Shown here one piece after another: positions 8,443 through 57,851 of a stretch of 64,000 nucleotides of DNA. The position numbers and the translations under genes are program-made. Origin of the DNA: Mytilus galloprovincialis. Lineage: Eukaryota. Under the pieces are notes generated by a model that saw nothing but the letters and a program-made list of their open reading frames with translations, was not told where the DNA came from and ran no database searches. How positions within the stretch are numbered: the stretch's first letter is position 1; every line of letters starts with the position of its first letter. The DNA is taken from the NCBI RefSeq assembly GCF_965363235.1, contig NC_134847.1:70173664-70237663 (forward strand), given 5' to 3'.

Positions 8443-8924
8443 GTAGGGATTTTTATGCCCCACCTACAATAGTAGGGGCATTATGTTTTCTGGTCTGTGC
8501 ATTCATTCGTCTGTCTGTCCCACTTCAGGTTAAAGAGTTTGGTCAAGTTGACGTCCAATCAACTTGAAACTTTGTACACATGTTTCCTATGTACAATGGT
8601 ATCTTTCTACTTTTAATGCCAAATTAGATTTGTGACCACAATTTCAAGGTCCACTGAACATTGAAAATGATAGTGCGAGTGGGGCATCCGTGTACTATGG
8701 ACACATTCTTGTTAATGATTAGTTGACTACAAATGCCAAAAAATACAGCATTACTGTTTGTTTTGCAGTTCTTCATCTTTTTGTCATTATATAATCCTAA
8801 AATATCAATTATAACTTTATCATAATAACAAAAGAATCTTTAATAGTGAGGAAATTGGGAATATATTGCAATGAAAATTACTGTTGATGTTGATTTTTTT
8901 ATTTTTATTAACTTTGTTCTTTAG

Positions 8925-9458
8925 GTCGTTTGGGGTCAAAAGAAATAGATAAAATGGTCAATGAAGCAGAGAAATTCAAGGCTGAGGATGAACAACAGGA
9001 AAATTGTATGTCTACAAAGAATGCTTTGAAAGGCTATGCACTTAACATGGTATCAGCAATTGATTTTGAAAAACATGAAGTTTACAGAATCGAAAAAATA
9101 CAAGACCTACTTTTGATAGATGTCACTCCAATATCTCTTGGTATAGAAACAGTCTGTGGTCATATGACACCTGTTATCAAACGTAATACAACAGTTCCTA
9201 CTAGAAAGAGCCAGACGTTCACTACTTCAGAGGACTACCAGATCAGTGTGTTTATTCAGGTTTATGAAGGGGAGAGAACTTTGGCCAAGAACAATAACTC
9301 TCTGGGAACATTTGTTCTGACTGGAATACCTGCTGCACCAAAAGGGGTACCTCAGATTGTTGTCACCTTTGATATTGATGCCAATGGTATTTTGACAATT
9401 TCTGTAGAAGATAAGATTACTGGAAAGAGAAATAGTTTTAAAATTACCAATGACAAAG
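8925..9458 (+). CDS. HSP70-family fused exon: the start of the lid ([25 protein letters not shown]…AIDFEK) joined in frame to a second copy of the substrate-binding beta domain (…[42 protein letters not shown]…ITNDKG)
   Basis: Acceptor ttctttag at 8924, a continuous open frame of 534 nt, and donor AAAG|GTAAGG at 9459, phase 1 to 1. The second domain is about 90% identical in nucleotides to 8060-8442. The LRG|gt donor present in the 11364 copy is absent, so lid and domain are fused. Confidence 0.6.
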
Positions 9459-9628
9459 GTAAGGATTTTTAATTATTAGTTGACCACAAATGTCAAAAAT
9501 TGTCATACAGTTCTTAATCTTTTTGTCATTATATAATCCTAATATATCAATTTTAACTCTATCATAATAACAAAAGAATAATGAGAAAATTCAGAATATA
9601 TTACAATAAAATTTACTGCTGATTTTTT

Positions 9629-16250: not shown

Positions 16251-17192
16251 TTATACAACCATTAAAAATTTTTGTGGTCGTATGTTGGTATCATGTCGTC
16301 GCCCGCGTCGCCTGAAAAGACATTAAGTTTACAGACAGTAACTTTGATTTTTAAGTGAATGGATCTCTTTGAAATTTAAACACAAGGTTTGAGACCACAA
16401 AAGAAAGGTTGGAATTGATTTTGAGGTTTATGGTCCCAACAGTTTAGGAAATAAGGGCCTTTAAAGGGGTCAAAATAAGCATTTTTATAAATTTTCAGAC
16501 AATAACTTGTAAGTGTATGGATCTTTTTGAAATTGTACTACAAGGTTCCATACCAAAAAAGGAAGGTTGGGATCGATTTTGGGGGTAATGGCCCTAACCG
16601 ATTAGGAATAATTAAGGGGCTAAAAACAATACTTTTCTAATACTTTGTGTAAATTACTTATTTCTTGACCAATTTCAATGGGATTATATTTTTGAATTTT
16701 TGGGGTTCTTTAATATGCTGAATTTAACAATGTATTAAGTTTTGGATTTTTGGCCCCATTTTTAAATTGAGGTTTAAAGGGTCCGAAATTAAACTTTATT
16801 TGATGGCATCAAAAATTAAATCATTGGGGTTCATTGATATGCTGAATATAACCGTGTATTTAGATTTTTGATTTTTGGTCCCATTTTCAAATTTGGTCTA
16901 CATTAAGGTCCAAAGGGTCCAAAATTAAACTTTGTTTCATTTCATCAAAAATTGAATTATTGGGGTTCTTTGATATGCTGAATCTAACGATGTATTTAGA
17001 TTTTGATTTTTGGGCCCTGATATCATATTGGTCCACATAGAGGTCAAAGGGGTCCAAAAGGTAAATGTCAAATTTAAAAAAATTAAGTTCTTAGACCACA
17101 TTCATTCTGTGTCAGAAACATATGCTGTGTCAAATATTTAATCACAATCCAAATTCAGAGTTGAATCAAGCTTAAATGTTGTGTCCATACCA
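16251..17192. mobile_element. Composite element of the same family as 9629-11342, truncated at its tail
   Basis: Left hairpin ttatacaaccattaaaaatttttgtggtcgtat, then a CGT microsatellite, A- and B-repeats and part of the conserved right arm. It ends within …gttgtgtccatacc. Confidence 0.7.
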
Positions 17193-17914
17193 GGGCTTCC
17201 AAAAAATATTTGAGCCAGCCGGACATTTTATATCTGATCCTGATTTTAATCCCTTAAAACTAAGTTGCAAAAGGCAATAATGTTAATCAGATGGCCATCC
17301 CAGTGATTGACATTAGATTAAAAAAAAAAAAACGATATTTAACTTTATTTTGATATGAATTTGATGTTCTTAAGTAAACTGTTAAATTGGCAGTGCATCA
17401 TTCGAAGTGTGCATATCACCGTGCTCATATCTGCTGCATTAGACTCTTTATTTGTGCAAAACATTATGGACTCCATACTTACCCCAACTGTTCTGTTTGA
17501 ACAAATATTTTACTGTCATCATGTTGGGCACCTTATTTCTATCCTCACTTAAAAGACCCAAGTATCAAGAAAATATTGTGCTTAAACACTTTAATATATA
17601 TATTTCTTAAAGGGGCACTAGCTGCCAAATTCATGGTCACTGATTTGACTCAAATTCTCATATTTTATTTAAAACAATGTAAAACATTTTTCCAAACCAT
17701 CAAAAGTATAAAATAAACAATTTACAGAACATGGTCTCAATAAGATGTAGCTTCATTTTGTGTAAATTTTAGCCAAGACGCCATCTAATTAACAATCGAG
17801 TTGACCTTATATGACCATATAAGCGATGTAAACATAAACATGGATATAAATAGATGAAGCAACTCGTGCAATTGGATTTTTAAAGGTCTGTTAAATTTTG
17901 TATTATAGATTAAA

Positions 17915-19390
17915 AATTTATGTTTATCGTCGTTTTTATGACGGCGTCGTTGTTGTCGTACGAAGACACATTGGTTTTTCGCACTATAACTTTAGTTTAA
18001 CTAAATAAAAATCTATGAAATTTAAACACAAGGTTTATGACCACAAAAGGAAGGTTGCGATTGATTTTGGAAGTTTTGGTCCCAACAGTTTAGGAATTAG
18101 GGGCCAAAAAGGGGCCCAAATAAGCATTTTATTTGGTTTTCGCACAATAACTTTAGTATAAGTGAATAGAAATTTATGAAATTTAAACACAAGTTTAAGG
18201 AACACAAAAGGAAGGTTGTGATTGATTTTGGGAGTTTTGGTCCCAACAGTTTAGGAATAAGGGGCCAAAAAGAGGCCCAAATAAGCATTTTTCTTGGTTT
18301 TCGCATCATAACTTAGTACAAGTAAATAGAAATCTATGAAATTTAAACACAAGGTTTATGACCATAAAAGGAAGGTTGGGATTGATTTTGGAAGTTTTGG
18401 TCCCAACAGTTTAGGAATTAGGGGCCCAAAGGAAAATTAAACTTTGTTTTATTTCATCAAAAATTGAATAATTGGGGTTCTTTGATATCCCTAATCTAAC
18501 TGTGTATGTAGATTCTTAATTTTTGGTCCCGTTTTCAAGTTGGTCTACATTAAGGTCCAAAGGGTCCAAAATTAAACATAGTTTGATTTTAACAAAAATT
18601 GAATTCTTGGGGTTCTTTGATATGCTGAATCTAAACATGTACTTAGATTTTTGATTATGGGTCCAGTTTTCAAGTTGGTCCAAATCGGGGTCCAAAATTA
18701 AACTTTGTATGATTTCAACAAATATTAAATTCTTGGGGTTCTTTGATATGCTGAATCTAAACATGTACTAAGATTTTTGATTATGGGCCAAGTTTTCAAG
18801 TTGGTCCAAATCAAGGTCCAAAATTAAATTTTGTTTGATTTCAACAAAAATTGAATCCTTGGAGTTTTTTGATTTGCTGAATCTAAACATGTATTAAGAT
18901 TTTTGCTGATAGGGCCAGTTTTCAAGTTGGTCCAAATCGTGGTCCAAAATTTAAACTTTGTTTGATATCAACAAAAATTGAATATGTGGGGTTCTTTGAT
19001 ATGTGCTGAATCTAACCATGTATTTAGATTTTTTATATTTGGGCCCGGTTATCAAATTGGTTCACCTTGAGGTCTAAAGGGTCCAAAATTGAACTTTATT
19101 TGATTTCATCAAAAATTGAATTCTTGGGGTTCTTTGATATGCTGAATCTTACCATGTATTTAGATTTTGGATATTGGACCATAATAGGTAAATTTCCAAT
19201 TTAAAATATTTAAGTTTTTAAGTTTAAGAACACATTCATTCTGGGTCAGAAACCTATGTTGTATCAACTATTTAATCACAATCCAAATTCAGAGCTGTAT
19301 CAAGCTTGAATGTTGTGTCCATACTTGCCCCAACTGTTCAGGGTTCGAACTCTGCGGTTGTATAAAGCTGTGACCTGCAGAGTACTGGTT
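17915..19390. mobile_element. Composite element of the same family, with a degenerate left end
   Basis: Three A-repeats, about nine B-repeats, and the conserved tail …ccccaactgttcagggttcgaactctgcggttgtataaagctgtgacctgcagagtactggtt. The minus-strand ORFs 18097..18309 and 18516..18764 are spurious. Confidence 0.75.
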
Positions 19391-23525: not shown

Positions 23526-23625
23526 GTAAGTTTATTCAACATTTTGAAAATTATCATAACTCTTCATGAGGTCCCCTTGCGAAAAAATGGATATTTGGAC
23601 CTTAATTCCATGTATTATAGTATAT

Positions 23626-23745
23626 AGTTATCAAAGGTACCAGGATTATAATTTAATACACCAGAGGCGCGTTTTGTCTACATAAGACTCATCAGTGACG
23701 TTCATATCCAAATATCTATAAAGCCAAACAAGTACAAAGTTGAAG
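23626..23745 (-). mobile_element. Partial retrozyme-like unit carrying a degenerate hammerhead core at 23657-23703
   Basis: Minus strand reads …CTGATGAGTCttatgtaGACaAAAC…; the G of GAAA is mutated, so this copy is probably inactive. Confidence 0.5.
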
Positions 23746-24819
23746 AGCATTGAGAATGGAAATGGGGAATGTATGAAAGAGACAACAACCCAATCAATGA
23801 GCAGAAAACAGCCGAAGGCCACCAATGGGTCTTCAACACAGTGAGAAAAAAACCTTCACGGGAGGCAGTCTCTAGCTGGCCCCTAAACAAAAATGTGTAC
23901 TAGTTTAGTGAAAATGGACTTTATACCAAACTCCAAAACATATAAATGAACTTATATTAAGAAACATACAAGACTAACAAAGGCCAATGGCTCATGACTT
24001 TGGACACATGCAAAAATGTGGCAGGGTTCACATGTTAAGTGTGATCTTAACCCTCCCCCTATACTTCTAGCTAATGTAGAAAAAACAACCACACAACAAT
24101 ACCCACAGTATGTCAGTTTCATGAAATGTCAATGAAACAGCAATCCAACAATACAATTCAACCAAAAAATGAGTATCCAGTGGCAAATATTACATGTATA
24201 TATATATGAATAGGAATGGAACCAACAATCTTCTGAGCTCAAAGCAAGCAGGCAATTGTGATATAACTGATGAAAATCACTAATATCAGACAGAAGATAT
24301 GAAAGAGACATTCAAAAATAGTTAGTTCAAGAAAAAGATAGACATTTATGAACACCAAATGCAAAAGTTCTTATAACATAGAAAATAAGATGGAATCATG
24401 TCCTCATATAGATTGGATCTAATGTGAAAGATTTTTATGACCATAAGTTGAACCAACAATTAAAGGTCATTTGAATTTGTATAATGGATGATCATGACAA
24501 AATTGTTCACAGAAATGAGAAAATGTGGTATGAGAGCCAATGAGACAACTCTCCAACCAAGTCACAATTTATAAAAGTATACCATTATTGGTTAAAGTAC
24601 AATCCAACACAGAGCCTTGGCTCATACCGAACTGCAAGCTATAAAGGGCCCCAAAAATAACTGGTGTAAAACCATTCAAAAGGGAAAACCAACTGTCTAA
24701 TCTATATAAAAATGAGAATCACTTATGAACCACATCAACAAACAACAACTACTGAACATCAGATTACTGACTTAGGACTGGTGCAAACAATTGCAATGGG
24801 TTTAAATGTTTTAATAGGT

Positions 24820-25215
24820 ACCAATAGTTATCAAAGGTACCAGGATTATAATTTAGTACGCCAGACGCTTGTTTCGTCTACATAAGACTCATCAGTGAAG
24901 CTCAGATCAAAATAGTTATAAAGCCAAACAAGTAGAAAGTTGAAGATCATTGAGGACCAAAAATTCCAAAAGGTTGTGCCAAATATGGCTAAGGTAATCT
25001 ATTCCTGGGATAAGAAAATCCTTAGTTTTTTGAAAAATTCAAATTTTTGCAACAGGAAAAAAAAAAAGACCATATAATTGATATTCATGTCAACACCGAA
25101 GTGCTGACTACTGGACTGGTGATACCCTCTGGGACGAAACGTCCACCAGCAGTGGCATCAACCCAGTGGTGTAAATAGTTATCAAAGGTACCAGGATTAT
25201 ACTTTAGTACGCCAA
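24820..25215 (-). mobile_element. Retrozyme-like repeat, about one full 350-bp unit plus the start of the next, with hammerhead motifs on the minus strand
   Basis: The unit runs from the hammerhead at 24856 to the start of the next motif at about 25200, roughly 350 bp. It is the same family as 46961-49000. Confidence 0.6.
24856..24903 (-). ncRNA. Candidate type I hammerhead ribozyme core
   Basis: Minus strand: gagcttca-CUGAUGA-GUC-uuaugua-GAC-GAAAC-aagcgucuggcGUAC. The conserved core and helix II are intact, but helix III is weakened in this copy. Confidence 0.5.
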
Positions 25216-27027: not shown

Positions 27028-29150
27028 TATACGACTGCAAGCGTCGTCCAAAGACACTTAGTTTCCGAATAATAACTTTAGTTTAAGTGAATGGATTTCT
27101 ATGAAATCTAAACACAAGGTTAACAACCACAAAAGGCAGGTTGGATTAATTTGGGGGTTATGGTTCCAACAGGTTAGGAACATGGGCCCAAAAAGGGGTC
27201 AAAATAAGTATTTTTCTAGTTTCCAGACAATTACTTGTGTGTAAGTGTATGGATCTTTCTGAAATTGTACCACAAGGTTTCATTCCATAAAAGGAAGGTT
27301 GGGATTGATTTTGGGGGTTATGGCCCAAACTGTTTCGGGATCAGGGGCCAAAAAGGGGCAGAAAACAATACTTTTCTAATACTTTGTATAAATTGCTTAT
27401 TTCTTGAACAATTTCAAGGGGTTTTATTTTTGAATTCTTGGGGTTCTTAAATATGCTGAATCTAACCGTGAATTAAGTTTTTGGAATTTGGTCCCTGTTT
27501 ATAAATTGGTCCACATGAGGTCTAAAGGGTCCAAAATTAAACTTTGTTTGATATCATAAAAAATTGAAAGATTGAGGTTCTTTTATTTGCCAAATCTATT
27601 CAATGACATGTATTTAGATCTTTAATTTTTTAATTTTTTCAAATAGGTCTACATTAAGGTCCAAAGGGTCCAAAATTAAACTTACCTTGATTTTAACAAA
27701 AATTGAATTCTTGAGGTTCATTGATATGCTGAATCTAAACATGTGTTTAGATTTTTATACGGCCGCAAAAATTATAATTTTTTTTGTCGTATATTGGTAT
27801 GATGTTGGCATCTGTGTCGTCGCCGTCCGAAGACATCTGGTTTTCACACTATAACTTTAGTATAAGTCAATAGAAATCTATGAAATTTAAACACAAGGTT
27901 TATGACCATAAATGGAAGGTTGGGATTGATTTGGGGAGTTTTGGTCCCAACAGTTTAGGAATTAGGGCCCAAAAAGGGCCCAAATAAGCATTTTTCTTGG
28001 TTTTTACACAATAACTTTAGTATAAGTAAACAGAAATCTATGAAATTTTAAAATAAAGTTTATGACCACAAAAGGAAGGTTGGAATTGAATTTGGGAGTT
28101 TTGGTCCCAACAGTTTAGGAATTTGGGCCAAAAGGGTCCAAAATTAAACTTTGTTTGATTTCATCAAAAAATGAAGTATTGGGGTTCTTTGCTATTCCAA
28201 ATCTAACCGTGTATTCAGATTCTGAATTTTTGGTCCTGTTTTCAAATTGGTCTACATTAAGGTCCATAGGGTCCAAAATTAAATTTAGCTTGAATGTAAC
28301 AAAAATTGAATTCTTGGGATTCTTTGATATGCTGAATCTAAACATGTACTTAGATTTTTGAATATGGGCCCAGTTTTCCAGTTGGTCCTAATTGGGGTCC
28401 AAAATTATTATTTTAAGTATTGTGCAATAGCAAGAAATTTTCAATTACGCATTATTGCACAATAGCAAGAAATCTTGAATTGCACAGTATTGTGCAATAG
28501 CAAGAGATTTTCAATTGCACAGTATTGCACAATAGCAAGAAATTTTCAATTTCACAGTATTGTGCAATAGCAAGAAATCTTCAATTGCACAATAGCAAGA
28601 AATTTTCAATTGCACAGTTTTGCACAATAGCAAGAAATATTCAATTACACAGTATTGTCCTGTTTTCAAATTGGTCTACATTTAAAAGGTCCAACAGGTC
28701 AAAAGTTAAACCTTGTTTGATTTCAACAAATATGAATATATGGGGTTCTTCAATATGCTGAAAGGAACCATTTATTTACATTTTTAATATTTGGGCCCTG
28801 TTATCAAATTGGTCCACATTGAGGTCTAAAGGGTCCAAAATTGAACATTATTTGATTTCATCAAAAATTGAATTCTTGGGGTTCCATGATATGCTGAATC
28901 TAACCATGTATTTAGATTTTGGATATTGGACCATAATAGGTAAATGCCCAATTTAAAATTTTTAAGTTTTTATGTTTAAGTTCTTAGACCACATTCATTC
29001 TGTGTCAGAAACCTATGTTGTGTCAACTATTTAATCACAATCCAAATTCAGAGCTGTATCAAGCTTAAATGTTGTGTCCATACTTGCACAAACTGTTCAG
29101 GGTTCGACCTCTGCAATCGTATAAAGCTGCACCCTGCAGAGCATCTGGTT
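27028..29150. mobile_element. Two adjacent composite elements of the 9629 family, 27028-27763 and 27764-29150
   Basis: Hairpin starts tatacgactgcaa at 27028 and tatacggccgcaaaaatt…ttgtcgtata at 27764. The second ends with the conserved tail …gcagagcatctggtt at 29150. The minus-strand ORF 28115..28345 is spurious. Confidence 0.7.
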
Positions 29151-34569: not shown

Positions 34570-36661
34570 TTATACGACCGCAAAAATTTTAATTTTTTGG
34601 TCGTATATTGCTATCACGTTGGCGTCGTCGTCTGCGTCGTCGTCGTCGTCGTCCGAATACTTTTAGTTTTCGCACTCTAACTTTAGTAAAAGTGAATAGA
34701 AATCAATGAAATTTTAACACAAGGTTTATGACCACAAAAGGGAGGTTGGGATTGATTTTGGGAATTTTGGTCCCAACATTTTAGGAATAAGGGGTCAAAA
34801 AGGGCCCAAATAAGCATTTTCTTGGTTTTCGCACTATAACTTTAGTTTAAGTGAATAGAAATCTATGAAATTTTGACACAAGGTTTATGACCACAAAAGG
34901 AAGGTTGGGATTGATTTTGGGAGTTTTGGTTCCAACAGTTTATGAATTAAGGGCCAAAAAGGGGCCCAAATAAGCATTATTTTTGGTTTTTGCACCATAA
35001 CTTTAGTATAAGTAAATAGAAATCTATGAAATTTAAACACAAGGTTTATGACCATAAAAGGAAGGTTGGGTTTGATTTTGGGAGTTTTGGTCCTAACAGT
35101 TTAGGAATAAGGGGCCCAAAGGGTCCAAAATTGAACTTTGTGTGATTTCATCAAAAATTGAATAATTGGGGTTCTTTGATATGCCGAATCTAACTATGTA
35201 TGTAGATTCTTAATTTTTGGTCCCGTTTTCAAATTGGTCTACATTAAGGTCCAAAGGGTCCAAAATTAAACTTAGTTTGATTTTAACAAAAATTGAATCC
35301 TTGGGGTTCTTTGATATGCTGAATTTAAAAATGTACTTAGATTTTTAATTATTGGCCTAGTTTTCAAGTTGGTCCAAATGGGGGTCCAAAATTAAACTTT
35401 GTTTGATTTCATCAAAAATTGAATAAATGGGTTCTTTGATATGCCAAATCTAACTGTGTATGTAGATTCTTAATTTTTGGTCCAGTTTTCAAATTGGTCT
35501 ACATTAAGGGTCCAAAATTAAACTAAGTTTGATTTTAACAAAAATTAAATTCTTTGGCTTATTTGATATGCTTTAATATCTAAATATGTACTTTGATTTT
35601 TGATTATGGGCCCAGTTTTCAAGTTGGTCTAAATCAGGATTCCATATCAAGTATTGTGCAATAGCAAGAAATTTTCAAGTGCACAGTATTGCACAATAGC
35701 AAGAAATATCTAATTGCACAATATTGTGCAATAGCAATTAATTTTCAATTGGAGTTATCTTTCTTTGTATAGAATAATAGTTGATAATATATGTTGGAAA
35801 TTTGCCAGACATGACTATGATGTCATTTTCTATTTTTATTTGCCAAAAACTTTATGTAAATAACTTCATTGGAAATTTGCCAATATAAAATGTTGCTGAT
35901 GAAGCTTTTTTTCCTTATCTTATCTAAAATGTTTTTAGATAATGTATGTTGGACATTTGCCAGACATGACTATGATGTCATTTTCTATTTTTATTTGCCA
36001 ATAACTTTATGTAAATAACTTCATTGGAAATTTACCAATATAAAATGTTGCTGATGAAGTTTTTTTTATTGTTTTATACAATAAACAATGTATATTCACT
36101 TTTACTACCAACCAATCTTTACCATTCAGTGATAACAAGCACTTTATTTTACATATTAATATTTTATGATGTATTTAAAAGAGTAGTTATTGTTGCAAAC
36201 TCCATTAGAAATTTGAATTGATATCAGTTTTGGAAAAAGGGAAACGTGGATGTGAAAAAAAAGGGGGGGGTTTAAATTTTTCTCATTTCAGATTTCATAA
36301 ATAAAAAGAAAATTTCTTCAAACATTTTTTTGAGAGGATTAATATTCAACAGCATAGTGAATTGCTCAAAGGCAAAAAAAAACTTTTAAGTTCATTAGAC
36401 CACATTCATTCTGTGTCAGAAACCTATGCTGTGTCAACTATTTAATTTTAGATTTAAAAAGTTTGAAGAAGAAATCTTTAATTGATTTGTAAAATCTTGA
36501 CATTTGTTTTGTGTAAAAAAAAACCATGTAATGTCAAAAATTTGATCACAATCCAAATTCAGAGCTGTATCACGCTTGAATGTTTTGTCCATACTTGCCC
36601 CAACTGTTCACGGTTCAACCTCTGCGGTCGTATAAAGCTGCGCCCTGCGGAGCACCTGGTG
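34570..36661. mobile_element. Composite element of the 9629 family, about 2.1 kb. Its right arm (36388-36661) is split from the rest by unrelated sequence
   Basis: Left hairpin tatacgaccgcaaaaattttaattttttggtcgtata, then a (CGT)n microsatellite, three A-repeats, B-repeats and three C-repeats. The tail is …ctctgcggtcgtataaagctgcgccctgcggagcacctggtg. Confidence 0.7.
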
Positions 36662-44960: not shown

Positions 44961-47235
44961 TATATTCATATGTATGGGTTAAAATAACAAATCATTTACA
45001 TTTACTATGGGCAAGTCAGTCAGACCTCACCTTTGATCCCTGTTGTAGTGAACATTTGTCTGATTCGTGTCTCATAACTTTTGTACTATGGAACACAAAC
45101 TCAGTTTTCTTTCAAGGGAAACCAGTCCATTCATACTATTACATGTTCATACTAAGTCAAATTGAACTTCTAGCAGTCAAATTAAACCAAGGTTAACTAC
45201 CAAGTAGAATAAAATGCAATCATTGGGAACTTGTACCACTGCAGACTCACCATAAAAAATATACATTGATATATGCATTGCTTTTGAAACCTTGATAACA
45301 TATAAACTATTTGCCTTAATAAATAAATCATTAGATAAACATTAATGTACTATATATGAATGTTTAATGTTGAGGCAACATTGCCACAGTTTTCATAATT
45401 ACGGTTGCCTTGGTTTTTGGTTAACTGCCTTCAGCGCTTACAGCGCTTTGATTTTACATGTCGCTCCGTATCTCAAAAATAATTTATGATTATTGCTTAA
45501 AACTTTACACACTTCTTTGTTATATTAATCTAAAGATCTGTATACTTTTTGGTTTTGATTCAAAGTTTTATTTTAGTGATATTTAGTTTTTTGTAAAAAA
45601 AAAAACAGGGTTGGGGGTTTCACATGTCCCGCCGTGTCTCAAAAACAATATATGGTTATTGCTTAAAACTTTCTCAGAAACTATTTATGATTATTGCATA
45701 AAACTTCCACACTAGACGTCGGGCGTATCATGCGCTCATGGCGCAGCTGTTTATTTAACATTTGCGTCTGGAAAGTTGAAATGTTTTAACTTAATCATTT
45801 GTGTTAATGGTTAAATATAAATTAATAATGAAAATTGTTAAAATTAAATCAATAAAGGAAATTATTGCCCAGTTACAAACACTACCAGGGGATAATCCAT
45901 GATGATTTCTTTTTGAGTTATATGTTTCAGCACATGTATATTTGACCCCAACTTTAGCCTGGTAAACGTGTTGTCTCCTTGTGAAATATAAAACATATTA
46001 AAAATGACTTTCTGCTAAAGTCTTTTATTTATATAAAGTTAAAACCTTCTTACTTCTAACTAGACAACACTCATGTCAGGTTTAATTATTATATATATGT
46101 GGATGAAAAATAAAAGTCCCCAAACATTAACATGACAGCAATTGCTTTTACAGCCTTTAAGGCTTTGATTTTTAATTGATTCTTTCTCTGATATTTTAAC
46201 TAATTGAACAACTTTATTTGGTGTATGCAATAATTTGAAGCGTGATAGTCAGTCTGGAAGCTGAATAGATCTGATTTTGACATTATTTCTAAAGTTCACT
46301 GGTTAATCATATTTTTTCTCATAATATAAGCAACATGTCAATATTCGGTAAATTCAATTATTGTACAGTGAACCTGTCCGCTTGGCACACAGGATACAAC
46401 AGATACAGATATGTCTGAAAACTTTTCATTTCTATGAAGCAATATACAAAAGGCGCCTGCATATGGTTATTAATCGCCAAGTTGATATGATTTGCAAGAG
46501 CTTACATTTCCGATCATGTTTCCTTGATAGAATATTATTGATATAATAACAAGGAGTTTTTAAACCAAAAATTCCGAATGATGAACTTGAAATTATTCCT
46601 TCGAAAACTTTATGGACTGATGGTTGACCGTTATAGAATATCTGTTTCAGTATAAAGTATCAAAGAAATTCTTATTTCAAGTAATAAGTAAGATACCTTT
46701 CACCATTAAAATTTAGTTTAAAGATAAGTTGAGATAGAAAATTTTCATTTGCCTTTAAGTAAAAAAAAAATCGATTATATCGTCATCGCTGATATCGAGC
46801 AATTATGATTGAATGGTATTAAGTATTGTCTTTATGAAGTTTAACTGAGGCAAATGTAGTTCACAAGAGTAAATTAATGAATCGGAAATAATGACGATGC
46901 AGCTAATAATATGTTACATTGGAATACAAATAACCAATGACCAGTAAAGAACGAACATAATTAGTTATCAAAGGTACCAAGATTATAATTTAGTACGCCA
47001 GACGCGCCTTTCTTCTACATTAGACTCATCAGTGACGCTCATATCAAAATATTTATAAAGCCAAAGTACAAAGTACAAAGTTGAAGAGCATTGAAGATCC
47101 TAAATTCCAAAACGTTGTGACAAATACGGCTAACTAAGGTAATATATGCCTGGGATAAGAAAATCCTTAGTTTTTTTTTCGAAAAGTGCAAAGTTTTGTA
47201 AACAGGAAATTTATAAAAATGACCACATTGTTGAT

Positions 47236-47238
<3 letters not shown>

Positions 47239-47266
<28 letters not shown>

Positions 47267-47679
47267 TCTTTATTTAAAGAGAGAACTCATTTGGATTAAA
47301 CCAATTTTCAATAAGGCTCTCTACATACAATGTTAACAATATGAATAAAAAATAATTAATCTACTATTACACACATGTAAACAATAGACATATATAAAGT
47401 AATATAACAACAACAACAAAAACAACTATGGTATACATTGTGGCTTAACTTATAAATTCAACACTTTTAAAAATAAAATGACTTGTAAGAGTTTTTGAAT
47501 GCAGATATACTTTTTGATTTTTAATTTCACTGGACGGTGAATTCCACACTTTTGGACCACTGAAAGAAAAACTTGATTTGTATAATTCTGTATTTGATTT
47601 AGGGACAATAACATTATCCGATGATGAAAGTCGAGTATTGTACAATAATTGCTTACTACTTGTAGGCACAATCAATATT
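47239..47679 (-). mobile_element. SINE-like insertion of 441 bp inside a retrozyme unit. On the minus strand it has a 3' (ATT)9 tail and is flanked by ATATT direct repeats. It is duplicated at 48039-48479
   Basis: A sister unit without the insertion at 48700-48860 defines the empty site (…ttgatatt|catgataacac). The flanks are tgATATT and caATATT. Confidence 0.5.
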
Positions 47680-47800
47680 CATGTCAACACTTAAGTGTTG
47701 ACTACTGGGCTGGTGATACCCTCGGGGACGAAACGTCCACCAGCATTGGCATCGATCCAGTGGTGTAAATAGTTATCAAAGGTACCCGAATTATAATTGA

Positions 47801-47848
47801 GTACGCCAGACTGACGTTTCGTCTGCATTAGACTCACCAGTAAAGCTC
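47801..47848 (-). ncRNA. Candidate hammerhead ribozyme core with the variant CUGGUGA box. The copy at 48601-48648 is identical
   Basis: Minus strand: gagcuuua-CUGGUGA-GUC-uaaugca-GAC-GAAAC-GUCagucuGGCGU-AC. Helix III (ACGUC/GGCGU) keeps its pairing through compensatory changes compared with other copies. Confidence 0.5.
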
Positions 47849-48035
47849 ATATCAAAATATCTATAAAGCCAAACAAGTACAAAGTTGAAGAGCATTGAAG
47901 ATCCAAAATTCCAAAAAGTTGTGCCAAATAAGGCTAAAGTAATATATGCCTGGGATAAGAAAATCCTTAGTTTTTTTTTCGAAAAGTGCAAAGTTTTGTA
48001 AACAGGAAATTTATAAAAATGACCACATTGTTGAT

Positions 48036-48066
<31 letters not shown>

Positions 48067-48947
48067 TCTTTATTTAAAGAGAGAACTCATTTGGATTAAA
48101 CCAATTTTCAATAAGGCTCTCTACATACAATGTTAACAATATGAATAAAAAATAATTAATCTACTATTACACACATGTAAACAATAGACATATATAAAGT
48201 AATATAACAACAACAACAAAAACAACTATGGTATACATTGTGGCTTAACTTATAAATTCAACACTTTTAAAAATAAAATGACTTGTAAGAGTTTTTGAAT
48301 GCAGATATACTTTTTGATTTTTAATTTCACTGGACGGTGAATTCCACACTTTTGGACCACTGAAAGAAAAACTTGATTTGTATAATTCTGTATTTGATTT
48401 AGGGACAATAACATTATCCGATGATGAAAGTCGAGTATTGTACAATAATTGCTTACTACTTGTAGGCACAATCAATATTCATGTCAACACTTAAGTGTTG
48501 ACTACTGGGCTGGTGATACCCTCGGGGACGAAACGTCCACCAGCATTGGCATCGATCCAGTGGTGTAAATAGTTATCAAAGGTACCCGAATTATAATTGA
48601 GTACGCCAGACTGACGTTTCGTCTGCATTAGACTCACCAGTAAAGCTCATATCAAAATATCTATAAAGCCAAACAAGTACAAAGTTGAAGAGCATTGAAG
48701 ATCCAAAATTCCAAAAAGTTGTGCCAAATAAGGCTAAAGTAATCTATGCCTTGGATAAGAAAATCCTTAGTGTTTCGAAAGGTTCAAAGTTTTGTAAACA
48801 GGAAATTTATGAAAATTACCACATTATTGATATTCATGATAACACCGAAATGTTGACTACTAGGCTGGTGATACCCTTGGGGACGAAACGTCTACCAGCA
48901 GTGGCATCGACCCAGTGGTGTAAATAGTTATCAAGGATTATAATTTA

Positions 48948-48995
48948 GTACGTTAGACGCGCGTTTCGTCTACATAAGACTTATCAGTGACTTGC
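48948..48995 (-). ncRNA. Candidate hammerhead ribozyme core with the variant CUGAUAA box
   Basis: Minus strand: gcaagtca-CUGAUAA-GUC-uuaugua-GAC-GAAAC-GCGCGUCUAACGU-AC. Confidence 0.45.
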
Positions 48996-49201
48996 ATAAA
49001 TAAGATATAAAAATGAACTCATGATTCAAATATTCCATTTGTACTATACAATGAATTTTACATGATATTTGAATGTACTTATTAATTAATATAATACTAT
49101 TTATTAAAAGAAAGAAAGAAAAAAAAGAAAGAAAAGGGTTAAATTCTTTCAGAAAATTGTTGAAGTTCATATTATAAAAAATAACTTACGATACAATATC
49201 T

Positions 49202-49242
49202 GGACCGGGTGAGTTTTCCAATGTTGAGTCAAATTAAGCCGA

Positions 49243-49285
<43 letters not shown>

Positions 49286-49451
49286 ATCAGCTTTGCAACC
49301 ATACTTCCTCCGGAACCCAAAAACTTTGGTTTCCCGGGGGCGGCCTACCAAGTAATTGACGCAACCCCGGCGGATCGCTAGTATGCATCCTTTATGGTCA
49401 GAACTACGACGGTATCTGATCGTCTTCGAAACCCTGACTTACATTCTTGAC
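49202..49451 (-). pseudogene. Fragment of an 18S (SSU) rRNA gene, about 250 bp, corresponding to …GAAGACGATCAGATACCGTCGTAG…GGAATTGACGGAAGGGCACCACCAGGAGTGGAGCCTGCGGCTTAATTTGACTCAAC…. It is a decayed pseudogene
   Basis: The reverse complement reads …ttcgaagacgatcagataccgtcgtagttctgaccataaaggatgcatactagcgatccgccgg…ggaattgacggaagggcaccaccaggagtggagccttcggcttaatttgactcaacattggaaaactcacccggtcc. There are several CpG to TpG substitutions relative to the universal conserved blocks, and no flanking rDNA. Confidence 0.8.
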
Positions 49452-52400
49452 TAATTAATTTTAACATTTAAAAAAAAAGTTGTGTTAACTTAGTGAACAG
49501 CTACATTTGTAAATGGAGCATCTTGGAATATCATTTTCTTGGCTTTGCTTAACTATCATTTTGTTCAAAAGAGTGTGTGCATTGAAATTTTAATCAAATG
49601 TGTATAACCTTATTGTCACTGATGTGTTTTAAGAAGACGAAATGCACGTCTTGCGTACCAAATCGTAAGAGTGGTATTTTTAATGAGATTTTACAACCAC
49701 TCGGTTAATATAACTGCTTGTGGACGTTTCGCCTCTAAGGGTATCACTAACCCAGTAGTCTTCACATTTGTGTTGACATGAAATATTATTGATGCATATA
49801 ATCTTTTATAAATTACCTGTTGTACAATTTTGAATGATTCAAACACTAAAAAAAATCTAACCAAATGATATATACAGCCTTAGTCGTTTTTGACAACTTT
49901 CCCGTATTCTCTATTTTTTAAGCTCGTCAACTCTTACTGTTTTAATTCGAATTTTACTAATGAGTCTAATGTATTAAATTGTCTAAATTATAAGCCTTGT
50001 ATCTTTAATGATTAGTTAATATATGATGTGGTATGATTGTCATCGAATCAATTGTCCACTAAGCACCAAGTGACGAAAATTTCAGCAAGTTAATTCAAGG
50101 GTAGTCTACAAGAACTAAAATCCCATACTGCATGGAAAGCTATAAAATGGTAATCCATGACAATCTGTAGACAATTCAAACAGAAAAAACTAAATGCCTG
50201 ACCTATGTTCAAAATAATGAATGTAAAACAGACATGAGACCAAATAAATCCCCCTGAATTACAGGCTCCTTACTTTGCAAAGTCACAAATATATAATGTG
50301 CAGTTGATAAGCGTAACACGGTAGAAATTATAATTGTTGGAACTAAAAAGTTCGGAAATATTTGCCACAGATGATTCAAATCAGTAGTCTTTGCATCTAA
50401 GAATGAAATGTACTGCAGAAAATGTAAAAATATGTCGGACCTATAAGTGTTGCCTTTCAAAAATATAATAGCTGTCTATAACAGGTCATTCATAAACAAA
50501 CAAAAAACCTGTCTAGACGTTTAAAACCTCTGCAGCATTCAATCAACTTGTAAATAAGTGTTACGTACAATCTACAGCACAATATTTCAAGGTAACCTGG
50601 TAACAACACAATATCTGATGGTTGATACGAATGTTGTCTTGTGTCTGTTTTAAAAATTACAAAATATAACCAAATTATCAAGCATACCCCCCCCCCCCCC
50701 CGCACTGATTTTTTACTGGTACAGGAAACCCGCATTCTTATAAGTTATACTAGTTATTGCACTACCTTCGCGTGCAACAACTGATATAGTACTTAAAGAT
50801 CGGAATTTTTATTGTGTTTTAAGTCTTATGTTAATTGGTTTTGGTATGTTTGTGAATCTGAGAAGTCGAACCATTTTCGACTTATTTCATAGTTAGTTCT
50901 TATGTTTTTGCTATTGCACTACCTTCCCATTTTATGGGAGGGTATTTTGACGGCTAACATGCTTAACTTCACCACATCCTATATGCGTGATTGTGCCAAG
51001 TCAGGAGCCTGTTTCTTTGTTCATGTCGTTGGTGGATATATTCATATCTGTAGTCCATACATTGTTTTGTACATAAATCAGGCCGTTAGTTTCTTTTCGT
51101 TTCAATTGTTAAACATTTTGTCAAGGAAATGTCTTTTAAGGCTTACTATGCAGTTTGAGTTTTATTCCTTGTTGAATACCATTCGATGACATGCTGACAT
51201 CTTCATAGTAAATAGCTTATCACGAATTAGCACAAAAAATAAAAACTCAAACACAAAAGACCATTCACTCGCGAATTTAAATTTAAAAACATAAAGAAAA
51301 AATGTCATCATTAAAAAATGACTTTTCACAGCCTCCTAAATAAATATTATAAAAAACCGATAGGATTTCAAAAAAGGACAAAATGCTTAATTTGGAAAAC
51401 AAAACCAGAAAAAGAGAACAAGTGCCGTGTTTTATCTTTATGTCTATATACGAGACAGTAAATTGGAAATTTGAAATATTAAGATGAACTTCTGCATTAT
51501 ATTTTATTATTCAAACATTTTAGTGCGGCGGCTACAAGCATATTTCACACGAATAGATGCACCCTGCTACAAGCATGAAATTGGACAGAGACCTTCCTCA
51601 ATTATAACCTTTTTATTTCAGATAAATTCAACATGGCGAACATTGTACAAGTATTAGCCTTTCAAAAAGGGCTAACCGTCTCTTAGCTAATGAAAATGGA
51701 AAGTGTTCTCGCTTTGTAGATTAATTCATTTAGAATATCAATCAACAAATTTTACCACACACGCGAGGTCACACGGTATGAAGTAGTATATATCGTTTAA
51801 CGTTGTTGTTTCCAAAGATTCGGCTATATATAGATAAAAGTTACCTGTGTACCAAAAAGTAAAATCACAAAAATACTGAACTCCAAGGAAAATTCAAAAA
51901 GGAAAGTCCCCAATCAAATGGCAAAATAAAAAGTTCAAACACATCAAACGAATGAATAACAACTGTCATATTCCTGACTTGGTACAGGCATTTTCTTATG
52001 TAGAAAATGGTGGATTAAACCTGGTTTTAAAGCTAGCTAAACCTCTCACTTGTTTGACAGTCCAGTCGCATCAAATTCCATTATATTGTCACCGATGCGT
52101 GAACAAAACAAACAGACACAATAGGTAAAAATGTCAAAAAATAGGGGTTCAGCAGTCAACATTGTGTTATCATCTTAATCACTATATATCATGAATATGC
52201 ATGATTAATGATCAGATAAAATCTTATTGCTAAAATAGAGAGGACAAATCCGATACTCTACGGGATTGAAGGACATTTACTAGGTTTGGATTGTACTAAC
52301 CAATCAATAAACTTTGATTATTCACGTCTCGTAATATCTTCCAATCAGGTAGTAAGAAGCATTCACACACTGACTGTCCATCGTTCAATTCTTAATATCG

Positions 52401-54050: not shown

Positions 54051-54270
54051 TTTTCTTGCTTTGTAAACCCCATCTTATAAGTTTTTTTCAATCTTACAAC
54101 AAAACCAAGTATCGTTTTATTAGTGACATTATCAAGTCCATAACTGGTGATGTTGGCTGATCAATCATCATTCTTAGCTGTATTTGGCAAAACTTTTAGG
54201 AATTTTGGTCCTCAATGCTTTTCAACCTCGTACTTTATTTGGCCTTTTTAACTTTTTAACTTTTTTGGAT

Positions 54271-54330
54271 TCGAGCGTCACTGATGAGTCTTTTGTAGAC
54301 GAAACGCGCGTCTGGCGTATATACTAAATT
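54271..54330 (+). ncRNA. Candidate type I hammerhead ribozyme, the best-formed copy, lying directly at the 5' edge of the 30/31-bp satellite
   Basis: tcgagcgtca-CUGAUGA(54281-54287)-GUC-uuuugua-GAC-GAAAC(54301-54305)-GC-gcgucug-GC-GUA|uauacuaaauu. Helix II and helix III are closed by loops and helix I is open, which is type I topology. The predicted cleavage site is after 54319. Confidence 0.55.
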
Positions 54331-54347
54331 TAGTCCTAGTATCTATG

Positions 54348-57300
54348 ATGTACATACATGGGAAAGTCAGGTTACAATGGTTACACGCATGGATAATCAG
54401 GTTACAATGGTTACACGTATGGAGAATCAGGTTACAATGGATACATACATGGGAAAGTCAGGTTACAATGGTTACACGTATGGAGAATCAGGTTACAATG
54501 GATACATACATGGGAAAGTCAGGTTACAATGGTTACACGCATGGAGAATCAGGTTACAATGGTTACACGTATGGAGAATCAGGTTACAATGGATACATAC
54601 ATGGGAAAGTCAGGTTACAATGGTTACACGCATGGAGAATCAGGTTACAATGGTTACATGTATGGAGAATCAGGTAACAATGGATACATACATGGGAAAG
54701 TCAGGTTACAATGGTTACACGCATGGAGAATCAGGTTACAATGGTTACATACATGGGAAAGTCAGGTTACAATGGTTACATGCATGGAGAATCAGGTTAC
54801 AATGGTTACACGCATGGAGAATCAGGTTACAATGGTAACATGCATGGAGAATCAGGTTACAATGGTTACATACATGGGAAAGTCGGGTTACAATGGTTAC
54901 ATACATGGGAAAATCAGGTTACAATGGTTACATACATGGGAAAGTCAGGTTACAATGGTAACATGCATGGAGAATCAGGTTACAATGGTTACATACATGG
55001 GAAAGTTGGGTTACAATGGTCACATGCATGGAGAATCAGGTTACAATGGTTACATACATGGGAAAGTCAGGTTACAATGGTAACATGCATGGAGAATCAG
55101 GTTACAATGGTTACATACATGGGAAAGTTGGATTACAATGGTTACATGCATGGAGAATCAGGTTACAATGGTTACCTACATGGGAAATCAGGTTACAATG
55201 GTTACACGCCTGGAGAATCAGGTTACAATGGTTACATACATGGGAAAGTCAGGTTACAATGGTTACACGCATGGAGAATCAGGTTACAATGGTTAAATAC
55301 ATGGGAAAGTCAGGTTACAATGGTTACACGCATGGAGAATCAGGTTACAATGGTTACACGTATGGAGAATCAGGTTACAATGGATACATACATGGGAAAG
55401 TCAGGTTACAATGGTTACACGCATGGAGAATCAGGTTACAATGGTTACATACATGGGAAAGTCAGGTTACAATGGTTACACGCATGGAGAATCAGGTTAC
55501 AATGGTTACACGCATGGAGAATCAGGTTATAATGGTTACATATATGGGAAAGTTGGATTACAATGGTTACATGCATGGAGAATCAGGTTACAATGGTTAC
55601 CTACATGGGAAATCAGGTTACAATGGTTACATACATGGGAAAGTCAGGTTACAATGGTTACATACATGGGAAAGTCAGGTTACAATGGTTACACGCATGG
55701 AGAATCAGGTTACAATGGTTACATACATGGGAAAGTCAGGTTACAATGGTTACACGCATGGAGAATCAGGTTACAATGGTTACACGCATGGAGAATCGGG
55801 TTACAATGGTTACACGCATGGAAAATCAGGTTACAATGGTTACATACATGGGAAAGTCAGGTTACAATGATTACACACATGGAGAATCAGGTTACAATGG
55901 TTACACGCATGGAGAATCAGGTTACAATGGTTACATACATGGGAAAGTCGGGTTACAATGGTTACATACATGGGAGAGTCAGGTTACAATGGTTACATGC
56001 ATGGAGAATCAGGTTACAATGGTAACATACATGGGAAAGTCGGGTTACAATGGTTACATACATAAAAAAATCAGGTTACAATGGTTACATGCATTGGGAA
56101 GTCATGTAACAATGGTTACATACATGGGAAAGTCAGGTTACAATGGTTACACGCATGGAGAATCAGGTTACAATGGTTACATACATGGGAAAGTCAGGTT
56201 ACAATGGTTACACGCATGGATAATCAGGTTACAATGGTTACATACATGGGAAAGTCGGGTTACAATGGTTACATACATGGGAAAGTCAGGTTACAATGGT
56301 TACATGCATGGTGAATCAGGTTACAATGGTTACATACATGAAAAAATCAGGTTACAATGGTTACATACATGAAAAAATCTGGTTACAATGGTTACATGCA
56401 TGGAGAATCAGGTTACAATGGTTACATACATGGGAAAGTTGGATTACAATGGTTACATGCATGGAGAATCAGGTTACAATGGTTACCTACATGGGAAAGT
56501 CGGGTTACAATGGTTACATGCATGGAGAATCAGGTTACAATGGTTACATACATGGGAAATTAGGTTACAATGGTCACACGCATGGAGAATCAGGTTACAA
56601 TGGTTACCTACATGGGAAATCAGGTTACAGTGGTTACACGTATGGAGAATCAGGTTACAATGGTTACACACATTGAGAGTCAGGTTACAATGGTTACATA
56701 CATGGGAAAGCCAGGTTACAATGGTTACACGCATGGAGAATCAGGTTACAATGGTTACATACATGGAGAGTCAGGTTACAATGGTTACATACATGGGAAA
56801 GTCAGGTTACAGTGGTTACACGTATGGAGAATCAGGTTACAATGGTTACACACATTGAGAGTCAGGTTACAATGGTTACATACATGGGAAAGTCGGGTTA
56901 CAATGGTTACATACATGGGAGAGTCAGGTTACAATGGTTACATGCATGGAGAATCAGGTTACAATGGATACATACATGGGAAAGTCAGGTTACAGTGGTT
57001 ACAAGCATGGAGAATCAGGTTACAATGGTTACCTACATGGGAAAGTCAGGTTACAATGGTAACATGCATGGAGAATCAGGTTACAATGGTTACACACATT
57101 GAGAGTCAGGTTACAATGGTTACATACATGGGAAAGTCGGGTTACAATGGTTACACGCATGGAGAATCAGGTTACAATGGTTACACACATGGAGAATCAG
57201 GTTACAATGGTTACATACATGGGAAAGTCAGGTTACAATGGTTACATGCATGGAGAATCAGGTTACAATGGTTACATACATGGGAAAGTCAGGTTACAAT

Positions 57301-57851
57301 GGTTACATACATAGGGATTCAGGTTACAATGGTTACATACATGGAGAATGAGGGTTACAATGGTTACATACATGGGGATTCAGGTTACAATGGTTACATA
57401 CATGGAGAATGAGGGTTATAATGGTTACATACATGGGGATTCAGGTTGCAATGGTTACATACATGGGGATGCAGGTTACAATGGTTACATACATGGAGAA
57501 TTTGGTTACAATGGTTACATACATGGAGAATTTGGTTACAATGGTTACATACATGGGGAATCAGGTTACAATGGTTACATACATGGAGAATTTGGTTACA
57601 ATGGTTACATACATGGGGATTCAGGTTACAATGGTTACATACATGGAGAATGAGGGTTACAATGGTTACATACATGGGGATTCAGCTTACAATGGTTACA
57701 TACATGGAGAATGAGGGTTACAATGGTTACATACATGGGGATTCAGGTTACAATGGTTACATACATGGAGAATGAGGGTTACAATGGTTGCATACATGGG
57801 GATTCAGGTTACAATGGTTACATACATGGAGAATGAGGGTTACAATGGTTA
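54348..57851. repeat. Satellite array of about 3.5 kb whose units alternate between 31 bp (ggttacaatggttacatacatgggaaagtca) and 30 bp (ggttacaatggttacacgcatggagaatca), giving a 61-bp higher-order repeat
   Basis: About 115 monomers, with variant subfamilies toward 57300-57850 (…ggggattca…/…gagaatgagg…). All ORFs at 54345..57775 on both strands (GYNGY…, VTMVTRMENQ…, HCNL… repeats) are translation artefacts. Confidence 0.95.

Follow-up and report, generated by a model that had tools for sequence, protein, structure and literature searches.

The window, that is, the whole stretch of 64,000 nucleotides of Mytilus galloprovincialis DNA that was analysed, contains five insertions (A-E) of a ~350-bp repeat family that carries hammerhead ribozyme (HHR) motifs. 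A first-pass annotation had located this family at four places, and all four are recovered by nhmmer with a profile built from Mg353 and the window units, at 23620-23757 (-), 24817-25214 (-), 46958-48997 (-) and 54173-54350, with an E of 1e-115 for window copies. The last of them lies on the plus strand, and not on the minus strand as had been stated for all copies, and an inverted copy at 49615-~50017 (+) had been overlooked. Mg353 is a cloned, self-cleaving retrozyme of M. galloprovincialis (Cervera & de la Peña, Nucleic Acids Res 2020; PMC7229834), retrozymes being small ribozyme-carrying retroelements that give circular RNAs (PMC7229834); its sequence and marked cleavage site were taken from supplementary Table 2 of that paper. 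By blastn, Mg353 matches the window at 77-89% identity (lowest E 1e-67), which bears out the earlier calls of a type I hammerhead, a retrozyme and a bivalve; the array flagged at the outset, insertion C, is 77-80% identical to it. Whole units align colinearly, with 78-81% identity to Mg353 and 85-96% between window units. They measure 347-368 bp once a 440-bp insertion is removed, compared with 350-390 bp for the published repeats, within which ~5000 HHR copies have been described in M. galloprovincialis. Their GC content is likewise low (36-38%, compared with <45-50% for metazoan non-LTR retrozymes), and they hold no notable ORF, those of at least 60 aa in 46900-50100 being either spurious or within the foreign insertion. 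From these alignments, the window repeats very probably represent mutated genomic copies of a retrozyme already known from mussels. It is of the non-LTR kind, ~350 nt long, AT-rich and non-coding, and has a type I hammerhead. The family has been published before, and the flagged array is a regular representative of it. A tRNA-derived SINE head (GGNTCGATGCC-like box) was also considered and rejected, as ARAGORN detected no tRNA-like sequence in the whole window.

Insertion C (46958..48997, -) is a 5'-truncated partial tandem made of model positions 315-356, three units (U1, U2 and U3) and a 43-nt 3' tail (46958..47000, -), which ends ...GATAACTAATTA, 40-44 nt past the cleavage-site position. 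The description of the array as tandem ~350-bp units holds for U1 (48609..48955, -, counted from the cleavage-site equivalent), which is uninterrupted, 347 nt long and 36% GC. It does not hold for the other two, of 800 and 808 bp, which are long because each of them contains a 440-bp foreign insertion, placed by unit alignments at 48031..48470 (-) in U2 and, as a second and identical insertion, at 47231..47670 (-) in U3. This insertion, not present in U1, copy B or Mg353, ends with AATAAA and (ATT)11 and encloses the remnant of an ORF, 76 aa long. The whole resembles the 3' end of a retroposon, presumably a LINE, to judge from the AATAAA and (ATT)n tail and from a ...SFSFSGPKVWNS... motif that occurs in other LINE C-termini. 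Its peptide has no Pfam match, and nine relatives, short and unnamed, were found in a large protein collection. An exact tandem duplication with a period of 800 bp covers 47139..48743, positions 47139-47943 being equal to 47939-48743 over 805 bp at 100% identity; it is a DNA-level event or an assembly artefact, and not an RNA-mediated unit. The array would thus have started as an old insertion of ~2.1 units, which the unrelated 440-bp retroposon-like sequence later entered and which the 800-bp DNA-level duplication then enlarged, after the entry of that sequence. With its ~2.1 units before duplication, array C displays the short tandem organisation of such elements (dimers or longer series of repeats of about 170-400 bp), and the four other loci are solo or of ~1.1 units. 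No other copies of the spacer, the insertion or the flanks of the array occur elsewhere in the window, and in the 617-bp spacer (48998-49614) nhmmer --max revealed no additional, more degenerate retrozyme sequence.

Across this spacer, insertion C faces insertion D (49615..50017, +, 3' end approximate) head-to-head, 617 bp apart. The two differ in divergence: D is older, ~70% identical and roughly 1.1 units long, and its two HHRs have degenerated (CUGAUGU ... GAAAU). Insertion A (23620..23757, -) is truncated on its 5' side and covers model positions 263-353, followed by a 44-nt tail; its HHR (23656-23703, -) reads GACAAAAC (G12 to A) and GCGCCUC. Insertion B (24817..25214, -, by nhmmer) consists of one full unit and a 47-nt tail, and begins, at its 5' end, exactly at the HHR cleavage site (TGGCGTAC...). 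In its only HHR (24856-24903, -), which scores 20.5 bits (E=0.11) against Rfam Hammerhead_1, the core is intact, helix I has one mismatch and the loop of helix III is changed; with its intact core, copy B may keep some residual activity. Insertion E (54173..54350, +) is a 5'-truncated solo fragment of 178 bp (model 227-356 plus a 35-38-nt tail) that abuts a 30-bp minisatellite and belongs to the Mg353-type subfamily (88.7% identity by blastn). It bears the sole intact hammerhead of the window (54273..54320, +), identical to the Mg353 HHR over 48 nt and scoring 32.5 bits (E=3.2e-6). In a transcript this ribozyme could make one cut, monomer release being impossible from a solo fragment. The HHRs of M. 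galloprovincialis retrozymes form two families, A and B (PMC7229834), and most window units may belong to the second, because they show UUAUGUA or UAAUGUA as variants of loop 2 and have one more hairpin, CAACACUUAAGUGUUG.

When up to 3 mismatches are allowed, the pattern CTGATGAGTC-N7-GACGAAAC has 12 matches where 0.01 would be expected by chance; viral contigs scanned for the HHR pattern gave no matches. The order CUGAUGA, GUC, 7-nt loop, GAC and GAAAC, as described before, is present at each of the four places, and the core mutations then listed (CUGGUGA, CUGAUAA and GACAAAAC) all appear in the alignment. What follows GAAAC had been read as a helix III hairpin and then GUA/GUAC, which is a mis-parse: the published cleavage site of Mg353 is GCGCGUC|UGGCGU (PMC7229834), and the Rfam Hammerhead_1 alignments put helices I, II and III as published for Mg353. 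This makes UGGCGU the 3' strand of helix I (GCGUCA/UGGCGU), the helix that could not previously be confirmed by eye; helix III is reduced to a minimal ACGCGCGU, a condition under which a hammerhead can be mis-parsed by eye. The covariation that had been invoked for the former helix III is an artefact, since among nine distinct HHR sequences no pair is changed on both sides in either fold and no measure stands above the shuffles; the choice of the published fold relies on the cleavage site and the covariance-model alignment, and not on covariation. The conserved type I core (CUGANGA / GAAA / RUH), together with helices I-III, is found at 54273-54320 (+), and in the HHR fold this copy has an energy of -4.4 kcal/mol, versus +0.4 kcal/mol or higher for every other one.

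In the Rfam search that had been proposed as a check, nothing in the window reached the gathering score, the best Hammerhead_1 match being of 32.5 bits against a threshold of 34, and HH9, HH10 and all other Rfam ribozyme families gave no match at E<=10 in 46500-49600. To count this outcome against a hammerhead, as had been suggested, is too strict, because intact reference copies on two metagenome contigs (L001 and L002) stay at 32.5-33 bits as well, so that the threshold misses even the experimentally active mussel hammerhead. Hammerhead_1 (RF00163) covers newt satellite 2, Schistosoma Sm-alpha, cave-cricket and other metazoan type I HHRs. The window HHRs share with it the open helix I, the 3-bp GUC/GAC helix II and the very short helix III, and match its consensus ...GACGAAACGCGCGUC... 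almost to the letter; they differ from it in the sequence of helix I and in their scores, which, reference contigs included, lie at 20.5-33 bits. In mussel HHRs the nucleotides of the tertiary contact between loop 1 and loop 2 are mostly missing (2020 paper, PMC7229834).

Array C contains four hammerheads. HHR-1 (48948..48995, -) has a CUGAUAA core (G8 to A) and UAACGU as the 3' strand of helix I, and scores 25.8 bits (E=0.0027), under the gathering score of 34. HHR-2 (48601..48648, -) has a CUGGUGA core (A6 to G), an altered helix III (ACGUCAGU) and GCUUUA as the 5' strand of helix I, and Rfam gives no match for it at E<=10. HHR-3 (47801..47848, -) repeats HHR-2 exactly, CUGGUGA included, and because of the exact 805-bp repeat the two represent one copy duplicated at the DNA level. 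HHR-4 (46993..47040, -) retains CUGAUGA and helix I, and has a broken helix II (GUC/GAA, C11.1 to A) as well as GAAAGG in place of GAAACG (C15.2 to G). Invariant core positions are thus changed in all four (A6G twice, G8A, and C11.1A with C15.2G), and the array should therefore no longer self-cleave or yield circles. In the light of classical hammerhead mutagenesis, it looks catalytically dead, rather than the mix of active and dead units for which it had been taken.

It is accordingly very unlikely that the array is an active retrozyme locus, transcribed and releasing, through hammerheads that perhaps work as dimers, ~350-nt units to be circularised. The mussel family is highly expressed as circular RNA, reaching up to about 1 of total RNA with RtcB as the circularising enzyme, and in the literature its unit-length circles have been demonstrated by northern blot and RT-PCR and its representative Mg353 self-cleaves in vitro with a kobs of about 0.1 per min. 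Moreover, helix III could pair across two ribozymes, and two HHR copies cofold at -36.6 kcal/mol versus 2 x -14.1 kcal/mol as monomers; the dimer idea is plausible because helix III is the short palindrome ACGCGCGU, and not for the reason given earlier. Array C itself, in addition to its four altered cores, has two units brought to 800 nt by the foreign insertion, its HHR-fold energies are all positive, and only one of its four hammerheads has any Rfam match. Compared with Mg353, the window units share the type I HHR, the same helices, the same GUC|U site and colinearity over the full length, whereas the array copies are core-mutated, interrupted by foreign sequence and partly duplicated as DNA.

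One might also suspect that every unit contains a further hammerhead on the plus strand (CUGGUGA-UACCC..GGGAC-GAAAC), opposite in polarity to the first, as happens in viroid-like RNAs with two ribozymes, and there are indeed four HHR-pattern matches with 3 mismatches, one per unit. We nevertheless rejected this antisense candidate, which is scarcely credible. Its core is non-canonical, with G at A6 in all copies, Mg353 included, a U/C pair at 10.1/11.1 and an extra nucleotide ahead of GAAA. The motif is not conserved in Mg353, which reads GGAGAUUUAUUUCUCC, the hairpin being kept there through two double changes and the complement of GAAAC lost. Rfam has no match on the plus strand of 46500-49600, and the segment is complementary to the genuine HHR, with which it pairs in the circular fold of U1; this agrees with the sequestering of the ribozyme in some mussel circRNAs (2020 paper, PMC7229834).

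The exact 800-bp duplication makes it clear that DNA-level amplification has happened here, and a local, satellite-like expansion of retrozymes is discussed in a recent preprint (2026 preprint, 10.64898/2026.07.22.740005). That the family is an ordinary satellite, amplified by unequal crossing-over only, with an incidental hammerhead-like motif, is however highly improbable: copies occur at five loci, in both orientations, with differing 5' truncations and a common 3' end, the same end pattern is found on two unrelated contigs, and the motif equals that of an experimentally self-cleaving ribozyme. In all seven insertions examined, five in the window and two on the metagenome contigs, the 3' end lies beyond the cleavage site by 35-47 nt. 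On the 5' side the ends differ, with model positions 263, 1, 315, 321 and 227 in the window and 241 in L001, the 5' end of the insertion in L002 being lost at the end of the contig. Around the five window insertions there are no convincing target-site duplications, the longest shared words being of 6 nt at most.

[quoted passage not shown] 2021, PMC8557442) and of which animal retrozymes have been proposed to be non-autonomous derivatives (2026 preprint, 10.64898/2026.07.22.740005). The likeness may extend to the frequent 5' truncation, the partial tandems, the head-to-head inverted 5'-truncated copy, the ~40-nt extension past the HHR at the 3' end and the location of one insertion beside a minisatellite; unlike PLEs, the window copies have no RT or GIY-YIG ORF and no recognised target-site duplications. 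The solo fragments A and E, and possibly D, might be 5'-truncated 3' ends, or pseudo-LTR parts, of an autonomous PLE sharing its terminus with the retrozyme. Such elements are mostly 5'-truncated, have HHRs in their pseudo-LTRs, tails of 30-40 bp and, often, an adjacent inverted 5'-truncated copy, and Xenopus retrozymes are homologous to PLE pseudo-LTRs. We regard this origin as unlikely, given that every fragment aligns to the retrozyme unit along its entire length and that the ORFs of at least 60 aa around the array (46900-50100) include none for an RT or a GIY-YIG endonuclease. In a wider Pfam scan, covering 6 of the window's 13 ORFs of at least 150 aa, the matches were to HSP70 only.

The mobilisation route that we infer, in line with the life cycle in the literature, would start with the transcription of tandem copies, and the RNAs would be made circular by a tRNA ligase of the host, of the RtcB type. 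New insertions, often multimeric and 5'-truncated, would then be copied from the RNA by a reverse transcriptase acting in trans, whose most likely source is a Penelope-like element. Plant LTR retrozymes are similar in that they are non-autonomous and that their HHR-released RNA is circularised by a tRNA ligase; they differ in being GC-rich, 600-1000 nt long, with type III HHRs inside LTRs, and in having a PBS, a PPT, 4-bp target-site duplications and Gypsy mobilisation, features that are not apparent here.

The family, the ribozyme, its cleavage site, the circular RNAs and the likely PLE link are all published (2020, 2021 and the 2026 preprint), so the flagged locus, a decayed copy, carries little weight as a discovery. 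Seven independent insertions have their 3' end in common, a small clue to the reverse transcription of retrozymes. As a tentative proposal, somewhat short of an even chance, reverse transcription would start at one internal site 38-47 nt downstream of the HHR junction and cross the intact junction, in which case the template would be a circle or an uncleaved multimer, and never a processed linear monomer. Insertions produced in this way would be 5'-truncated, partly tandem and at times head-to-head, as in Penelope-like elements; insertion B, starting exactly at the cleavage site, fits run-off at a ribozyme-cut 5' end. Were the pattern to hold genome-wide, it would be direct genomic evidence for the RNA form that is copied and for the kind of enzyme that copies it. 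As for the local context of the proposed start site, it sits just before a large conserved hairpin.

Repeated units with hammerhead-like cores are present on the minus strand of 46961-49000, and their observation in the first-pass annotation is largely real. The pattern CTGATGAGTC-N7-GACGAAAC, allowing up to 3 mismatches, has 12 matches where dinucleotide shuffles give an expectation of 0.01; eight of them are true hammerhead motifs. Searches of the window by blastn with one unit and then by nhmmer with a profile of the units place the family at five loci: A (23620-23757, minus strand), B (24817-25214, minus), C, the array itself (46958-48997, minus), D (49615 to about 50017, plus) and E (54173-54350, plus). 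All four loci claimed earlier are thus present, with E assigned to the wrong strand and D missed, and each of the quoted core variants (CUGGUGA, CUGAUAA and GACAAAAC) occurs among the copies.

The retrozyme label is also correct. About 5000 type I hammerheads, within repeats of 350-390 bp, have been described in Mytilus galloprovincialis (Cervera & de la Peña 2020, PMC7229834), where they self-cleave slowly (kobs about 0.1 per min), circular RNAs are abundant and RtcB, not the ribozyme, carries out circularisation; supplementary Table 2 of that study lists the sequence of a cloned genomic unit, Mg353, and indicates where it is cleaved. The window copies are colinear with Mg353 at 77-89% identity (E down to 1e-67), and the hammerhead of locus E (54273-54320, plus) shares all 48 nt with the Mg353 hammerhead. 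Judged by this alignment, the repeats are members of an already known, published family, and the repeat by itself makes a Mytilus-like genome very probable. The units have a GC content of 36-38%, and neither a meaningful ORF nor a tRNA-like part was found in them.

With the cleavage-site position taken as unit boundary, array C (minus strand) starts 5'-truncated inside a hammerhead (model positions 315-356 of the family profile), continues with units U1 (347 nt), U2 (800 nt) and U3 (808 nt), and ends in a 3' tail of 43 nt. The length of U2 and U3 includes the same foreign insertion of 440 bp (48031-48470 and 47231-47670, minus), a dispersed-repeat fragment with AATAAA and then (ATT)11 at its end and a 76-aa ORF remnant (...YKSSFSFSGPKVWNSPSSEIKN...). 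This peptide has no Pfam match and nine relatives, short and unnamed, in metagenome assemblies; the insertion probably represents the 3' end of a different, LINE-like retroposon. The segment 47139-47943 equals 47939-48743 at 100% identity, forming a tandem with a period of 800 bp (47139-48743) that covers one retrozyme unit together with its foreign insertion. Such identity points to a very recent duplication of unit and insertion at the DNA level, or to an assembly duplication. Array C originally comprised about 2.1 units with three hammerheads.

The fold proposed in the first-pass annotation does not hold. It took ACGC and the GCGU within UGGCGU as the two strands of helix III, placed cleavage after GUA and left helix I unlocated, whereas the published Mg353 site is GCGCGUC|UGGCGU (PMC7229834), which puts UGGCGU in helix I, and the alignment of the copies to the Rfam Hammerhead_1 model agrees with it. 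Helix I is thus GCGUCA/UGGCGU, helix II is GUC/GAC with a loop of 7 nt, and helix III is reduced to the short palindrome ACGCGCGU. The published fold is preferred because the experimental cleavage site and the covariance-model alignment both support it and helix I exists only there. Nor is the claimed covariation of helix III real: among nine distinct hammerhead sequences (seven variants from the window, one of them that of Mg353, and two from metagenome contigs), double-sided changes numbered zero in either fold, and neither exceeded shuffle controls. In the helix III variants quoted, only one side of a pair has changed, and the copies concerned are decaying.

The remaining four pattern matches, on the plus strand (CTGGTGATACCC..GGGACGAAAC), were considered as a second ribozyme and rejected, being the complement of an internal unit segment able to pair with the true hammerhead. 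In the predicted circular fold of U1 this segment does pair with it, in agreement with the remark that the ribozyme is sequestered in some mussel circles (PMC7229834). The units contain a conserved long hairpin (ACUGGG...GCUGGUG...CACCAGC CCAGU; 47699-47771, 48499-48571, 48854-48926 and 25105-25177, minus), in which, for the window subfamily, the inner part complements the hammerhead core (GACGUUUCGUC versus GACGAAACG); as modeled, such pairing can sequester the ribozyme when the RNA is folded as a circle. In Mg353 the internal segment retains its hairpin by virtue of two double changes (GGACG/CGUCC to GGAGA/UCUCC), and these remove the GAAAC complement.

Substitutions at A6, G8 or G12 lower hammerhead activity by orders of magnitude. 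In array C, HHR-1 (48948-48995, minus) carries CUGAUAA (G8A) and a damaged helix I, HHR-2 (48601-48648, minus) has CUGGUGA (A6G) with changes in helices I and III, HHR-3 (47801-47848, minus) is its exact duplicate, and HHR-4 (46993-47040, minus) shows GUC/GAA (C11.1A) and GAAAGG (C15.2G). Elsewhere, the copy of locus A (23656-23703, minus) has G12A, that of D (starting at 49615, plus) several core changes, and that of B (24856-24903, minus) an intact core with one helix I mismatch; that of E is fully intact. When the canonical fold was imposed on each copy, only the intact sequence had a negative energy (-4.4 kcal/mol), all others lying between +0.4 and +7.9 kcal/mol. The Rfam search suggested earlier gave no match anywhere in the window at the gathering score of 34; in E-value mode, E reached 32.5 bits, the best score, followed by HHR-1 (25.8) and B (20.5), with no match for HHR-2, HHR-3 or HHR-4. 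Lack of a significant covariance-model hit is too strict a refutation here, because intact copies of the family ribozyme on two unrelated contigs also score only 32.5-33 bits against 34. From the known effects of core substitutions, the array hammerheads are predicted to be dead and, since A, B and E carry a single hammerhead each, no locus in the window should be able to release unit-length RNA by double self-cleavage. On this prediction, the flagged array is a relic that is no longer active, is interrupted and has in part been duplicated at the DNA level, within a family already described in detail.

In the published cycle, tandem copies are transcribed, cleaved by the hammerheads, circularised by a host tRNA ligase and reverse-transcribed by a non-LTR enzyme, for which Penelope-like elements (PLEs) are the favoured candidate; a July 2026 preprint on vertebrate data argues that retrozymes of animals derive from PLEs and are non-autonomous (10.64898/2026.07.22.740005). 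The 3' end of all five window insertions lies 35-47 nt beyond the cleavage-site position (tails at 46958-47000, 23620-23663, 24817-24863, about 49975-50017 and 54313-54350), in most cases at a T-rich ...ACTATT(T)/...TTTATTT immediately ahead of the large conserved hairpin. On marine-metagenome contigs, the hammerhead pattern led to two more insertions (L001, 2537-2579; L002, 183-227) that end at the same position, making seven of seven independent insertions. The 5' ends vary (model positions 263, 1, 315, 321, 227 and 241, the seventh being cut off by a contig end), that of B coinciding exactly with the cleavage site. As the GUC-UGG junction is uninterrupted in every insertion, short ones included, the copied RNA would have been a circle or an uncleaved multimer and not a processed linear monomer. 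C and D, the latter more diverged, lie head-to-head with 617 bp between them; no target-site duplications were found at the window insertions. PLE insertions are described as sharing their 3' end, being truncated at the 5' end, occurring as partial tandems or beside an inverted neighbour and carrying about 40 nt of tail (Craig et al. 2021, PMC8557442), and the retrozyme insertions resemble them in these features. On a sample of seven insertions, this tentatively suggests a PLE-like insertion anatomy of mussel retrozymes.

In the spacer between C and D, oriented like C, lies a piece of a eukaryotic 18S rRNA sequence (49200-49524, possibly to 49600, minus). It matches positions of about 975-1220 of the SSU model well and shows decay of transition type; it may have arisen as an rRNA retro-pseudogene or by template switching, although about 200 AT-rich bp lie between it and the array. 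The 3' end of fragment E abuts a 3.5-kb minisatellite (54351-57851, plus) of about 115 copies of a 30-bp unit (TACATACATGGAGAATCAGGTTACAATGGT), with higher-order periods of 61 and 91 bp and several long mechanical ORFs that have no Pfam match. Another tandem array, at 1-1727 (61-bp unit, about 28 copies, 81% matches), continues past the window start. Two ORFs, at 7929-8567 and 8930-9472 (plus), match one shared stretch of the Hsp70 family profile (about 377-501; E 1e-45 and 1e-47), which suggests duplicated or fragmented HSP70 gene copies. Composite repeats recurring at 10607-11118, 16776-19172, 27838-28927 and 34666-35751, with tandem blocks of 160 bp, 126-136 bp and 35 bp in fixed order, resemble a type of mobile element, known from bivalves, that carries satellite repeats.
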